A DNA stretch of 64,000 bases, from positions 149,202 through 213,201 of the forward strand of contig JAVBLL010000008.1 of the NCBI GenBank assembly GCA_031553555.1, given 5' to 3'. The stretch is from Bacilli bacterium (GTDB lineage: Bacteria > Bacillota_I > Bacilli_A > ML615J-28 > CAG-698). Made by a program: the position numbers and the translations under genes. Under the pieces are notes generated by a model. The model searched no databases, was not told the DNA's origin, and saw only the letters and a program-made list of their open reading frames with translations. Of the stretch, positions 34,062-54,322 are shown one piece after another. Every line of letters begins with the position of its first letter. Within the stretch, counting starts at the first letter, position 1.

Positions 34062-34748
34062 TTAATAAGTTGATTTAAAGAAAACAAGCATTTTTTCAAT
34101 TTTAAATTCTTTATGTTCTTCAACATATATTTGATAATTAAGTTCTTGAATAAAATTAGAGGACACCTTATCATCATATGTACTAATTAACTTTGAAAGA
34201 CTTAAACATGAAAGTTGAAAGAAAATTGTCATTGTGCTCCCAGGTGCAAGACCATCATATGTGAAGAATGGCGTTTTAAAACTACCATCTGATTTTATCA
34301 GATTAGGCATATACTGTCCGCCTTCTACTTCTACTATATTATCCGGTTCTGAATCAAGACAATATCTAATATTTTCAAATGCGAATATTTTAATTAAAAC
34401 AAAGCCAGCCACATCACTAACGCCTAGTTCAACCTTAGATTTTACGCTACCTGTGTTTTTAACAACAAATTTATAGCTAAGTACTTTGCCAGAAACAACT
34501 AAAGCGTTATTAGTGACATCGCTTGATACATATTTATATATATCCTCCCCGTTTTCCTGGTCTAAAATACCATCTAGATTATTATCTAAGCCAACATACA
34601 AATCAGCTGTTCCAGAGACGTCACCGCTAACTACTACTACTTTTTGGGTTTCTTTGATTAAAGGCATCCATGCATACACAACCATAACAAACAAAAATAA
34701 AGTTGCGAAAAGACTGAAAATTGAAAATATTAATTGTTTTTTCGTCAT
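34062..34748 (-). CDS. Small TasA/camelysin-like secreted protein with SipW-cognate-type signal peptide (last gene of operon 1)
   Basis: 228 aa. N-terminus KKQLIFSIFSLFATLFLFVMVVYAWM has a hydrophobic core followed by a (T/V)YA(W/Y) motif, as in the TasA/CalY signals (GGGTFAYFSD). The mature part reads VSGTADLYVG… YKFVVKNTGSV, paralleling TasA ASGTLDL… FQFENNGSL. Confidence 0.45.
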   Translation of the reverse strand: MTKKQLIFSIFSLFATLFLFVMVVYAWMPLIKETQKVVVVSGDVSGTADLYVGLDNNLDGILDQENGEDIYKYVSSDVTNNALVVSGKVLSYKFVVKNTGSVKSKVELGVSDVAGFVLIKIFAFENIRYCLDSEPDNIVEVEGGQYMPNLIKSDGSFKTPFFTYDGLAPGSTMTIFFQLSCLSLSKLISTYDDKVSSNFIQELNYQIYVEEHKEFKIEKMLVFFKSTY

Positions 34749-34752
34749 ATTA

Positions 34753-37700
34753 TCAACTTCCTTTCTCTATCATTATTTGACGATAGGCAATTGTATTATC
34801 ACTTAATGACGTCACTTTTAAATAAACAGCGAAAGCATTGCCAACAGCGCTTGCTGTAATTGCAAAACTTTGAACATTACCAGTTGTATTTTGAGAATAA
34901 ACAAAGTCATCAGTAGTCAATAGAATTTCTATAGTATATTTTGGACTAACATCTTTTTGATTCATATTAATATCAAAATTACCTAAATTAATAATTCCAT
35001 CTGCAGGAATAATTTTATCATAACATAAAATAGCATTAACAGCTCTATGAACAGCCAATTCACTATTACCAACAACTATTAGAGCATTGTTTGTGTTATA
35101 TACAATGACTTTGCGTTCCAATAATTCAATGTAAGTCGCCTTATTCAAAGCGCCATTTGTTCCATAGGCATCAGCAATTGTAACATCATCTTTGCTACTA
35201 TCATAAAGTCCCTCAACAGTATTAGCAGCAACAATATTATTACCAACATAAGCATATTTTAAGTTCGACAATCCTAATAATGGACTAAAAATTGCGATTT
35301 TATTATTTTCTATATTTACCTCTACTAAAATAGGCATTTTTTCGATACCACTAATATCACTTAAATTAGTTTGATTATTTAAGCTTATCTTTTTGATTTT
35401 TCGATAAAAATACGAATTGCTACCATTTAATAAAGATGTAATACCATTATACGATAAATCTATTTCTTCCAATTCTATTAACTGTTGAAAAACTATCAAA
35501 TCAGAATCAATAAGCCCACAATTACTAGCATACATTTTAACAATTTTCAAACCTGAAAGGTTTGCCAACTTATTAGTTCCTGTTAATGGATTATTATTTA
35601 AATTAAGAATAGATAGTGATGTTAAGTATTGCATCCCGCTAAGATTTTTGATACTCAAATCACTAATATCAAAATTGTCAATCAAGATAACAGAATCACG
35701 AAAAACATAATTAAATAATTCATTATTATTTTGTAATCTTCCCCAAATAGTTTCGCTATAAATACCAGCTTTATATTGAAGGATTTTGGATTTTATGGCA
35801 TTATAAAGATTAGTATCTTTATATGGTTCACCATCACCCAAACGATAAATTCCAGGAATCGTAAAGTAATATTCTTGAACTACTTTCGCTTGATTAGGAA
35901 CAATAATATTTGCAGTTATACTAATAATAGTGTTAGTAGTTGGAATAAAGTTTTTGTTAATAATTATTTGAACCATATTTTCTGTTTGAATAATTGAACA
36001 AAAACTCAAACCTTTGCTATCATCTGCAAATTCCAATTCCACTTCTATTTCATTTAATTTACGTTCAAATTCAAAACCAGTTATAGTATACGCATTATTT
36101 GTAAATACACTTTGCAAAATTTGTTGCATATTGACCAGTTCATCATCACCACCACTACCACCTTTGGCAGGTATTGTAATGTTATATAAATGTTCTGTAA
36201 CCGTATTATTATTCCATTTAACCGTAACTTTTAAATCTAATTTTTGTTTTTCAGTAATTTGAAAGTTTAAAAAACTGGAAACTTTAACACGATCAGCAGT
36301 TGGATCAGTAAAATCAAAAATTAAACGATTGTAAAACTGCTCTGATAACGTTTGATCTGCAATAAATTCATCAGTATCTTCATTTAAATTATAAGCTACG
36401 ATATCGTATTCTACACTAGCGATTCCAAATAATAATTTCAAGTCAGTAGTAAATAAATCATAAAAATCTTTTTCAACAAAATATACTGGACCAAAAGCCG
36501 AATTTAATTGTTTTTCTTTTTCAGCTTGGGTGCATCCTTCAATTGTAATTGTTAAAACTTTAGTTGCAGTATTAGTAGTATCTTTCTTTGAATAAGTTAC
36601 TTTTATATCAATATTAGTATCAATAATAGCCGACCTAATCAAATTCATTATATTAGTATTAGAATCGTAAACAACTAATTTATTACTGCTCAATTCATAA
36701 TTTAATGTCATATCTTCATCAAACATACTGACTGCAGGAAGCATTATTCCCGCAGGAAATGATCCTCTGTCCATAATGCTATAAATAATTCGGTTGATTT
36801 CACGAATAGTTTGGTTAAATATACAATCATCCGTATTTCCCACTATGACTAAATTATAATCCATACTAGCATTTTCAAATGCTGAAACAGGTGTGTCATT
36901 ATACTTCAATGAAACCGTTAAGACAACATCTCTATCAGTAGACCCCCTAGTAATATGACCATTTGCTTGTAAATAATCAATATTAGAGGAACTATAATTA
37001 TATGTAATTGGATAATTGAAAAATGTTTTTGGTAAAACGATGTCATCCATAATAGCATATTTAGTTGTATTATTTTCCACGAAATCATATAAAAACAAGC
37101 TTTTCAAATATATTTGTGCAGCCTCAGCCGCAAAAATAATTTTATCTTCACTAGCATTACTAAAAACATCAATAAAGTTTGATGAATTAGATATTAAATT
37201 CATATCACTAAAATTATAAAAACAATTTGGGGCGCTAATTTTTAAGATTTCATTATCATTATCAATTCCACCACCACTAAGAGCATTAATATAATATACT
37301 CCATAATAATGATGTTTTATGTTTACTGGAGCTGATAAAACTAATGTATTATCAAGCAAATCAATTGTTGATGGAAGGTTAATGACTAATTCATCAACTA
37401 TCTCTAAGTCATTCAATAAAATAAAATGTGGTATTCTAGTTTTTGTAGATGATTTATCATTTAAACTAAAACTATTTAAATGTTTACGAATATCAAATTC
37501 TTTATTAATATAACAATTTGTTGATTGCTCATCTTTGCTAGATTCTCTATATAAAACATAAACGCTTAAGTTAGCATCAGCAATTTCGTTATTAGTTGAA
37601 TTGATTATATTTAAATCAATAGTGACCTTATTCTCAATATTAGGTTTTAATTCACTTTCACTTTCATAAAATAAAACAGTTTTATTTTGAATCATCACCA

Positions 37701-54200: not shown

Positions 54201-54258
54201 TAATAACCATACTCATTGAACCTATTAACTTAGATTTCAAAAATTTTTTTGTTTTCAT
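51247..54258 (-). CDS. Large (~1003 aa) secreted protein with TasA-type signal peptide and C-terminal LRR array (first gene of operon 2)
   Basis: Start MKTKKFLKSKLIGSMSMVIISLLLLCTLTYGWIAHIKS with an AGGAGG RBS. LDLDGHNLKI beta-helix-like segment. LRRs FEGLQYFTKIQILGLNGSGYN… LTPLKELKNLKVLYLSNFNITNLYTIQSLPIEYVYLAGNTNLKDVTPM. Confidence 0.5.
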   Translation of the reverse strand: MKTKKFLKSKLIGSMSMVIISLLLLCTLTYGWIAHIKSIDGIGKIKTGDFAIIATYPLYEDGADLEKMSFTNAGDIHIVNFTITNDSSYTIFYFIQFQLTNPTSTLIPGIDVYLNDEYAGDLVSLVASSSTPIANKKYTMHAFEELDVELRFEYHIGITEYLLSQDFGLTINIYAQQMSLEEELFYVYSLAELQRFASQSSSYDNLYIKLANDIVIDSGETVNFVNNATLDLDGHNLKIQGNLNFLGSGISKLISSVSSQSTIIGNVRFNNSNGLLMADKAYTSNIILSDFSSSLLKAQYQEYLKNTVGDKVQSDFDIMGQLGAYLSYFELVLGKNTTLIGTTLKINKDLKTVTSNISYKINGQSAEVHEFQIIGNSATVVWDSVIVPKYFSTLFNNETQNATILSSSMYLPTYLKEYNCHIDWFSVNPEILSHKGVFSIQMKSSIQLLVKINLNGEVFQREYNINVVEQSNQEKLQYLIDSWGDLNLLDVGYDHADDLPTLLTYMNATNTDLGIKSISYSYDTSRYNFLSILDGKAYLNNYTAIKYLPINLHVVFENETAVTYTGEIGVLIAFGAGGNAEEIINEISSYLSYNTMYDFDLPTELLGQYLYYYIPNDIAGDKRPEDMFTDTEIINSIAGYKMVSVDDNGHFSINLDYGVPIRTVVYIIVQIGEFGARRVMEFGIEPVIAYNDEGTGQIKDLVLFNALKSALGITETRNYFLLTEVNNATFTTFPSTMKIPTVDTYLRTTTFTTAQNPYGTPLSGDITSFEGLQYFTKIQILGLNGSGYNANQAKASDLTPLKELKNLKVLYLSNFNITNLYTIQSLPIEYVYLAGNTNLKDVTPMAYWTLRAANCYGTGVTEPLGKWAMGSGILNFKTVVDSSTMIYYHYNTGTYQIQTGSGKDTTAIKELKNYNSIGDVYSTLILPRPITSTFSYYVWTVDSGSSSNIAITYLSENAGTISCTITRPASDKECIIYFTLAENNSNFASTRPFFITLKGAGSL

Positions 54259-54322
54259 CTTGACCTCCTGTATATTTATCATATTAATGATTAAGTATTT
54301 ACTATATAAATTTTCACTTTTT

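Follow-up and report, generated by a model that had tools for sequence, protein, structure and literature searches.

A c-di-GMP riboswitch-headed gene block encoding candidate TasA-superfamily surface proteins with leucine-rich repeats in an uncultured gut Bacilli lineage

In the 64-kb stretch of an uncultured Bacilli genome considered here (contig JAVBLL010000008.1, positions 149,202 to 213,201; "the window" in the following) a block of about 20 kb, located between hrcA and a gene for an MBL-fold hydrolase, carries seven co-oriented open reading frames (ORFs) of at least 200 amino acids (aa). All are on the minus strand at 34062–54282 and are numbered O1 to O7 from the hrcA side. The balance of the evidence tips towards the block being a lineage-specific island that is switched by cyclic di-GMP (c-di-GMP) and that encodes the structural parts of a surface fibre or adhesin system of the TasA superfamily.

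The N-terminal domains encoded by the block belong to a protein family of their own. An exhaustive HMMER search with a profile hidden Markov model (HMM) of six of these domains returned two kinds of match. The first comprised giant repeat proteins in which only a PGDxxxFxxxxNxG segment was matched, and the second comprised small proteins of 150–300 aa which aligned from residue 1 and which had the same signal followed by (T/V)(F/Y)AWF. The small homologues share an invariant A-W, a following strand (..KT.PI.I.TGSL...LY), the PGD and N.G strands and a C-terminal strand, and the stretch just after the motif is the most conserved part of the family. An HMM built from 26 external members only scored 79.1 bits with O1, 70.9 with O4, 52.3 with O5, 27.8 with residues 1–162 of O3 and 25.8 with the N-terminus of O7, and matched nothing else in the window. 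Judged by these alignments, the small proteins and the N-terminal domains of the block are a real family without a curated model.

The family can in turn be connected to TasA and camelysin. Among 5.8 billion database sequences its profile found two PF12389-annotated proteins (E 1.4e-7 and 5e-6), both of which start with the canonical GTTYAWFTD, and of 23 family members two matched Peptidase_M73 (best E 1.2e-4) and one matched TIGR04088 (E 0.043). When the family was compared by hhalign with TasA, the PF12389 proteins and a neighbour from the related metagenome locus L002 (see below), the probability was 97.9% (E 4.5e-13); it was 92.2% (E 6e-7) when all signal peptides had been cut, over the N-terminal strand and the PGD and N.G strands, and 46–57% only against TasA alone. 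The best PDB sequence matches were AbpX fibrils of the TasA superfamily (9sj2 and 9rhp), which at E ~0.1 are not significant, and fold searches returned generic sandwiches. Homology to the TasA superfamily is very likely for five of the seven proteins (O1, O3, O4, O5, and O7), and the N-terminal export signal of the family is common to all seven.

This signal consists of a K/R-rich start, a hydrophobic core of about 15–20 residues and then [TV][YF][AG] followed by W, Y, or A. An earlier note on this DNA, made from the letters only, had described the layout as TasA-type and had quoted one string for each protein (TLTYAYF, IMTYAYF, TLTYGWI, VVYAWF, VVYAWM, LTFAWI, and IVYAAD); all seven strings are indeed found right after the basic N-terminus and the hydrophobic core. 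In a six-frame regular-expression scan of the whole window (ORFs of at least 80 aa, read from the first Met) the layout was confined to ORFs of the block, and O7 escaped the scan only because it was read from its upstream ATG. The −3/−1 rule is satisfied by all seven proteins, with T or V at −3 and A or G at −1, and in the hhalign alignment these positions are in register with the TWA↓AF site of TasA (the arrow marks cleavage). Each protein has one strongly hydrophobic segment, which is N-terminal, and O3 has one marginal internal window in addition; AlphaFold2 (AF2) predicts the signal segment as a single long helix that continues through the motif. Two other surface proteins of the window have a lipobox and an ordinary signal, respectively. 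A type IV prepilin or pseudopilin signal was rejected upon reading of the seven N-termini, which contain no G↓F-T-L-x-E motif and no Glu at +5, and sortase anchoring was rejected as there is no C-terminal LPXTG signal.

Related loci in metagenomes show what this signal may be used for. In every related locus inspected the family member adjoins an archaeal-type (SipW-like) signal peptidase. One group of loci comprises L002 and L004 (27–29% GC) together with L020–L023, which partly overlap the same cluster, and a second group comprises the JGI contigs L013–L018. L002 and L004 contain a conserved operon in which the family member is accompanied by additional xTFAWF paralogues and by archaeal-type signal peptidases, two or three in number, which score 66.6, 65.4, and 59 bits with TIGR02228 and are thereby above its cut-off of 51.85 bits; the peptidases of L020–L023 were recognised solely by their position and length in the same cluster. 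The second group has a cassette of an xLAWF protein, an AWLTDTD protein, a SipW-like peptidase of about 155 aa, the family member, an SFLTD protein, and a giant protein. Four of these peptidases were scored and reached 38–51.5 bits with TIGR02228, their best family match, and those of L013 and L017 were recognised by an S-M-x-P-type motif only. The adjacency of peptidase and family member is the strongest support for the SipW-type reading of the motif. Together with the profile homology between the family and TasA it backs the proposal of the earlier note that these are TasA/SipW-type signals, and SipW-type processing of the block proteins appears moderately likely. A conserved gene pair was also observed in these operons (L002 5944–10008, L004 5954–9991, and also L020–L023), always between the SipW-like peptidase and the family member and with no counterpart in the island. 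It encodes a protein of 511–514 aa with weak McrB-like AAA similarity (E 6e-4) and one of 819–830 aa for which DUF2357 is on record in most loci, and it may represent an assembly factor or an embedded defence module.

The second line of evidence concerns control. Three leaders in the block match the c-di-GMP-I riboswitch model RF01051 of Rfam over model positions 1–87, with scores of 57–63.8 bits compared to a gathering score of 35 bits, and the aptamers contain the conserved elements GGCAAA/GACGCAAA/AGCC. What had been called riboswitch-like leaders are almost certainly real c-di-GMP-I riboswitches. One precedes operon A and two in tandem precede operon B, and the promoters of the two operons are the two best sigma-70-type matches in the region. 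In all three leaders the aptamer is followed by a hairpin with a U-run, and the 5′ arm of the hairpin (AGCCAGU(U)...) doubles as the 3′ strand of stem P3 in the aptamer. These terminators were located by folding, as the loop limits of the standard terminator scan exclude such hairpins. Since the 3′ strand of the aptamer is the 5′ arm of the terminator, the two structures are mutually exclusive, which corresponds to the design of an ON switch. When leader A was folded without constraints it formed the terminator hairpin with its U-run (−29.3 kcal/mol), and enforcing the aptamer pairs gave −20.1 kcal/mol, i.e., a cost of 9.2, with the outer terminator stem gone. By this layout, binding of the ligand probably leads to read-through. 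The B1 and B2 aptamers differ at 3 of 75 positions, and the near-identical riboswitch units in front of operon B (47405–47640) point to a recent tandem duplication. In the Logan assembly the contig stops close to the operon-B leader, some 190 bp beyond O5, and the tandem repeat may be the reason.

Riboswitches of the same class head three distinct operons in the related loci, two in L002 and one in L004. The second L002 riboswitch precedes a second SipW/TasA-like cluster, one member of which matches the TasA model, and an L002 leader has the same overlap between aptamer and terminator as well as a P2 stem that covaries with that of the window. No riboswitch was found in the L013–L018 cassettes. 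GGDEF-EAL genes were observed directly upstream of the riboswitch heading the related operons (L002 296–1885 and L004 1–2728), which hints at a signalling module for c-di-GMP at the locus itself; the window ORFs that were scanned include no GGDEF or EAL gene.

The block is organised as two operons, A (O7-O6-O5) and B (O4-O3-O2-O1), in which genes overlap or are separated by 4–18 nt; the gap between O5 and O4 is 378 nt. The seven ORFs are located where the earlier note had placed them, except that two starts were moved. The longest ORF of O7 is 51247–54282, and its likeliest start is the ATG at 54258 (1003 aa) with an AGGAGG site, in agreement with the public gene call. For O4 the longest ORF is 46692–47438, and the start was placed at the ATG at 47393 (233 aa), with a GGAGGG ribosome-binding site, because the TTG extension enters the riboswitch. 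O1, O4, and O5 are small stand-alone family members without leucine-rich repeats (LRRs), and LRR regions are found in the other four proteins (O2, O3, O6, and O7; 883–2884 aa). The earlier description of multi-thousand-residue LRR proteins holds for O3 only (2884 aa), as the other three are of 883–1084 aa. Pfam and NCBIfam returned only LRR matches and weak aBig_2 matches for the seven proteins. O3 reached 50.4 bits with LRR_4 (Pfam cut-off 27), and its residues 743–870 (44064–44447) resemble the LRR of internalin A, with matches to InlA (E ~1e-37), InlH, and InlB and 89 bits with NF033188, which is far below the equivalog cut-off of 1050 bits of that model. This resemblance argues for a binding function of O3. 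The LRRs of O2, O6, and O7 are below the Pfam cut-offs (E 1e-4 to 1e-5), and O7 also has internalin matches in the PDB. A region with the motif (L/I)DL(N/D)GH.(I/L) was further noticed in O6 (residues 78–191), O7 (206–309), and O3 (208–331); it has no Pfam match, is reminiscent of parallel beta-helix repeats and comes after the TasA-like module or, where O6 is concerned, after the strand.

Fusion of a TasA-type N-terminus to a large protein is not unique to the window, only uncharacterised, as a 1779-aa protein in the metagenome locus L024 (1614–6953) has the canonical TasA-type start GTTFAWFTD, a camelysin-like domain and a long extension. Its gene adjoins that of a 409-aa PF12389 protein, and the end of the 1779-aa protein looks Hint- or intein-like by eye.

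A number of results weigh against the proposed reading of the block. The formal check named in the earlier note, i.e., a search with TIGR04088, the model of SipW-dependent signal peptides, and with Peptidase_M73 (PF12389), went against it: none of the seven proteins matched TIGR04088 at E<=10, neither as full proteins nor as N-terminal fragments of 54–60 aa, where B. subtilis TasA as positive control scored 38 bits (curated cut-off 19 bits). Similarly, the curated thresholds of TIGR04089, TIGR04090, PF12389, and NF046066 were reached by none of the seven, and there was no PF12389 or NF046066 match even at E<=1. The PGDxxxFxxxxNxG segment is common to the CARDB- and DUF11-like Ig repeats of giant proteins, and part of the family signal is thereby generic. 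O6 has no TasA-like sandwich; its match to the family HMM is limited to residues 2–30, which is the signal and the motif, and after the motif it continues straight into the LDLNGH-type region that in O3 and O7 comes after the sandwich. The domain of O2 is barely detectable, with a weak though collinear match of 7.7 bits to the jackknife HMM. No C-terminal sorting signal and no LPXTG with a membrane segment is present in any of the seven proteins, i.e., no anchoring device was recognised. No SipW-type gene was found in the 64-kb window or in about 8–10 kb beyond either end, as judged by Pfam on all small and most larger window ORFs, a scan for the SMEP motif, and extension on both sides with Logan contigs (one protein at the right edge had no record); the scan for the SMEP-type peptidase motif was done in six frames and was negative across the whole window. 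Finally, thermodynamic folding of aptamers B1 and B2 alone misses the consensus P3, so that the ON assignment for these two rests on sequence overlap.

With these points taken into account, a mechanism can be outlined. At high c-di-GMP the ligand would hold the aptamer fold, the terminator could not form and both operons would be read through; the tandem pair would give operon B a sharper threshold. Sec would export the products, and a SipW-type peptidase whose gene lies elsewhere in the genome would cut them after [TV]-[YF]-[AG]. Cleavage would free an N-terminal strand led by an aromatic residue (W/Y-F/I/M...), and by donor-strand complementation this strand would enter the next subunit's open beta-sandwich, as in TasA, BsaA, and AbpX. 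For AbpX and the TasA superfamily an aromatic "clamp" with which the donor strand begins has been described, as have loci that encode tip and minor components together with signal peptidase I (bioRxiv 10.64898/2026.01.04.697558), and donor-strand exchange has been described for BsaA, with paralogue-rich operons and possible heteropolymers being discussed for BsaA and TasA (PMC11580942). O1, O4, and O5 would then make up the fibre shaft, and O3 and O7, possibly joined by O2, would be subunits with an additional task, the display of LRR binding modules of the internalin type. O6 could donate a strand but not accept one, and like TapA, or the tip components predicted for archaeal loci, it might form one end of the fibre, be it as its cap, its tip or its nucleator. 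The proposal that the subunits take these roles and build a fibre by exchanging strands has at best an even chance of being correct. It is tempting to go further and speculate that the block of these uncultured gut Bacilli specifies a heteropolymer, a donor-strand fibre from a new clade of the TasA superfamily, in which the LRR proteins of up to 2884 aa are integral strand-exchanging subunits and not merely tips, O6 caps or nucleates, SipW is supplied from elsewhere and the operons are turned on by a single and a tandem riboswitch, and that c-di-GMP control of SipW/TasA-like operons is a conserved, undescribed regulon in low-GC gut lineages; in this full form we consider the proposal doubtful.

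The same data could be explained without a fibre. If the signal were an uncleaved signal-anchor with its aromatic motif at the membrane interface, the block would encode seven separate c-di-GMP-induced adhesins or accessory proteins tethered to the membrane. The N-terminal position of the sole hydrophobic segment, the lack of LPXTG or another wall anchor, the lack of a dedicated peptidase gene in the island and the AF2 helix running through the motif are all in line with such tethering, and oligomers of C. perfringens BsaA have been reported to be membrane-anchored (PMC11580942). On the other hand an uncleaved anchor does not account for the small residues at −3 and −1 in all seven proteins, exactly in register with the TasA cleavage site, nor for the SipW-like peptidases that are always found beside family members in related loci, and conservation is highest just after the motif, as expected of a donor strand. 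Tethered adhesins are for these reasons unlikely. The proteins might also be ordinary Sec substrates cleaved by the housekeeping P-type signal peptidase I, the small ones being soluble Ig-like or CARDB-like proteins whose likeness to TasA reflects remote ancestry and no shared assembly. The −3/−1 rule suits any type I peptidase, the TIGR04088 threshold is not reached, the PGD...N.G motif is frequent in Ig-like repeats and the fold searches give generic sandwiches, all as this explanation would have it. However, the 92% hhalign probability holds for the mature regions with their N-terminal strand, and at the predicted cleavage site A-W does not vary in the family alignments. SipW-like peptidases are consistently encoded beside family members, and operons with several paralogues are typical of TasA-superfamily filament loci. 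Together these points leave ordinary secretion rather unlikely.

It is also conceivable that the block is a mis-join in a metagenome-assembled genome (MAG) or consists of decaying, non-functional ORFs. The source genome is metagenome-derived, each of the seven proteins stands alone among about 15 billion sequences, and the break of the Logan contig coincides with the tandem repeat of riboswitches. However, the Logan assembly (run SRR23967709) contains the same sequence as the NCBI contig, which is 380 kb long, and the Logan contig crosses the right-hand junction into the housekeeping genes. The seven ORFs are intact, with up to 2884 codons at 28% GC, and tightly spaced, they come with consensus promoters, ribosome-binding sites, riboswitches and a terminal terminator, and GC content and GC skew equal those of the flanks. 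An artefact is on this evidence highly improbable.

The island interpretation gains from the comparison with relatives. The species is absent from the GTDB representatives that were searched, where the nearest HrcA proteins found in a scan were 61–71% identical and came from uncultured "Bacilli" MAGs, some labelled Lapin (rabbit) or Hadza. In two MAGs of the closest relatives hrcA directly follows the MBL gene, in a third there are two unrelated genes between them, and no family member is present in these MBL-hrcA loci. Since the island is absent between MBL and hrcA in the relatives, the 20-kb block appears to be a lineage-specific insertion, in agreement with the accessory locus that had been proposed. 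All seven proteins form singleton clusters at 90% identity among the ~15 billion proteins, and a word-indexed homologue search returned only O5 itself for O5 and nothing for residues 1–717 of O3. The flanks are housekeeping genes as first described, with hrcA-grpE-dnaK-dnaJ on one side and MBL/PRC/yqeK-rsfS/yqeH/yqeG on the other, and GC content (~28% in the window) and GC skew are unchanged across the block relative to the flanks. A mobile element was considered and rejected, as no integrase or transposase match was found in the block and its composition equals that of the flanks; none of the seven ORFs had a mobility-type family match, which agrees with the original statement that mobility genes are lacking. 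The features of the block and its borders are collected in Table 1.

Table 1. Coordinates of the predicted features of the block and its borders (positions in the window; arrow, predicted cleavage site)
Feature	Positions	Strand	Remarks
hrcA	32850–33872		
Intrinsic terminator closing operon B	34001–34047	−	13-bp stem and T-run; followed by hrcA promoter and CIRCE-like repeats
O1	34062–34748	−	228 aa; stand-alone family member, VYA↓WM
O2	34753–38007	−	1084 aa; signal and VYA↓AD; degenerate TasA-like N-domain aa 6–176, weak; LRR ~aa 776–912
O3	38019–46673	−	2884 aa; signal and TYA↓YF; TasA-like N-domain aa 1–175 (46149–46673); IDLNGHDI-type region; several LRR segments
O4	46692–47393	−	233 aa; stand-alone family member, TFA↓WI
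Terminator B2	47405–47443	−	followed by GGAGGG and the O4 start codon
Aptamer B2 (second of tandem pair)	47431–47505	−	RF01051, 61.5 bits
Terminator B1	47523–47559	−	overlaps aptamer B1 3′ strand AGCCAGU
Aptamer B1 (first of tandem pair)	47546–47620	−	RF01051, 63.8 bits
Promoter, operon B	47640–47668	−	TTGACA-17-TATAAT with TG; 12/12 consensus
O5	47772–48590	−	272 aa; stand-alone family member, VYA↓WF
O6	48599–51250	−	883 aa; signal and TYA↓YF and N-terminal strand; LDLNGHSITF-type region; LRR ~aa 656–767
O7	51247–54258	−	1003 aa; signal and TYG↓WI; TasA-like N-domain ~aa 27–185; LDLDGHNL-type region; LRR ~aa 765–850
Terminator, leader A	54323–54365	−	5′ arm AGCCAGUU ACAUAC is the 3′ part of aptamer A
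Aptamer A (c-di-GMP-I)	54352–54426	−	RF01051, 57 bits
Promoter, operon A	54442–54470	−	TTGACT-17-TATAAT, TG extended −10; 11/12 consensus; directly upstream of aptamer A
MBL-fold hydrolase gene	54526–55152		

Several features of the surrounding DNA were recorded in passing. In front of hrcA (33868–33934, minus strand) two CIRCE-like inverted repeats, TTAGCACT...GTGCTAA and TTAGCA...GAGTGCTAA, bracket a promoter that fits the consensus at 12 of 12 positions, which is the usual HrcA operator arrangement. A tetrahydrofolate (THF) riboswitch (23583–23671, minus strand, 44.7 bits) is located upstream of a gene for an energy-coupling factor (ECF)-type S-component (22991–23548), which is probably a folate-family transporter. 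Surface or secreted candidates outside the island are a 978-aa lipoprotein with a Big_2 domain (11396–14332, minus strand), an 816-aa Flg_new (Listeria-Bacteroides repeat) protein (20456–22906, plus strand), and a GH5 cellulase (14455–15696, minus strand); the signals of the lipoprotein and the Flg_new protein are of ordinary types.

Fibres of the TasA superfamily are emerging as a widespread biofilm scaffold in bacteria and archaea, and the characterised examples have small subunits, are from cultured species and are controlled by protein repressors or temperature. The clade described here is missed by the current Pfam and NCBIfam models and is therefore unannotated in MAGs from the gut. It is repeatedly wired to c-di-GMP through predicted riboswitches, and in the island the putative strand-exchange module is fused to internalin-type LRR regions. 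If the proposed mechanism is true, the island would show a simple way of building an adhesive fibre, with the choice of large subunits determining what it binds, and would be a testable case of second-messenger control of attachment to host or particles in an uncultured gut lineage. The family alignments could also seed a new HMM for genome annotation. The earlier note saw no characterised system with this gene content, and in agreement with this no open-access paper was found that links a c-di-GMP riboswitch to TasA or camelysin genes, or SipW to LRR proteins. Large proteins with TasA-type N-termini do exist elsewhere (L024), although none was found described in the literature.

Compared to known systems, the island is similar to the tapA-sipW-tasA operon of B. 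subtilis and to CalY of B. cereus in having a signal that ends in T-aromatic-A↓aromatic-F and is followed by a PGD...N.G beta-sandwich. O6 has a parallel in the strand-only or minor partner TapA, and the related loci carry SipW-type peptidases. The island differs in that its signals lack the GGG turn before the motif, in that it contains neither sipW nor tapA, and in that its paralogous substrates number seven, against two, with LRR regions fused to four of the seven. Control differs as well, being exerted by SinR and Spo0A at the TasA locus of B. subtilis and putatively by c-di-GMP riboswitches in the island. Such riboswitches are found upstream of the adhesin and pilus genes pilA1 and CD2831 in C. 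difficile and cap in B. thuringiensis (tandem Bc3-5). The island shares with these systems a transcriptional c-di-GMP riboswitch right upstream of surface genes, and tandem aptamers are known from them, but what they control are type IV pilins or adhesins anchored by sortase (LPXTG). The class 1 LRR internalins of Listeria (InlA, InlH, and InlB) are matched by residues 743–870 of O3; unlike them, the island proteins have no N-terminal cap/IR architecture and no LPXTG, GW, or WxL anchor, and the LRRs appear as internal modules of a TasA-type fusion. The sipW-bsaA-bsaB-bsaC operon of C. perfringens is likewise a Firmicute locus of the TasA superfamily with several paralogues per operon, and BsaA is a polymer formed by donor-strand exchange of a subunit without LPXTG (PMC7395162; PMC11580942). 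The block proteins, however, miss the BsaA-family model TIGR04090, the island has no VWA partner, and expression of BsaA is temperature-regulated with no riboswitch reported. In the AbpX, AbpA, and Tafi bundling-pilus systems of archaea and bacteria the donor strand begins with an aromatic residue, as is predicted for the island. AbpX is also the best, not significant PDB match (E ~0.1), and the loci of these systems contain signal peptidase I and predicted tip and minor subunits. They are from other organisms, some have a different type of signal peptidase (10 transmembrane segments), and neither c-di-GMP control nor LRR fusions have been described for them. As a candidate system in which a divergent clade without a model is combined with LRR fusions, control by riboswitches and a peptidase whose gene presumably lies elsewhere, the island is best placed with the TasA/SipW fibre systems.

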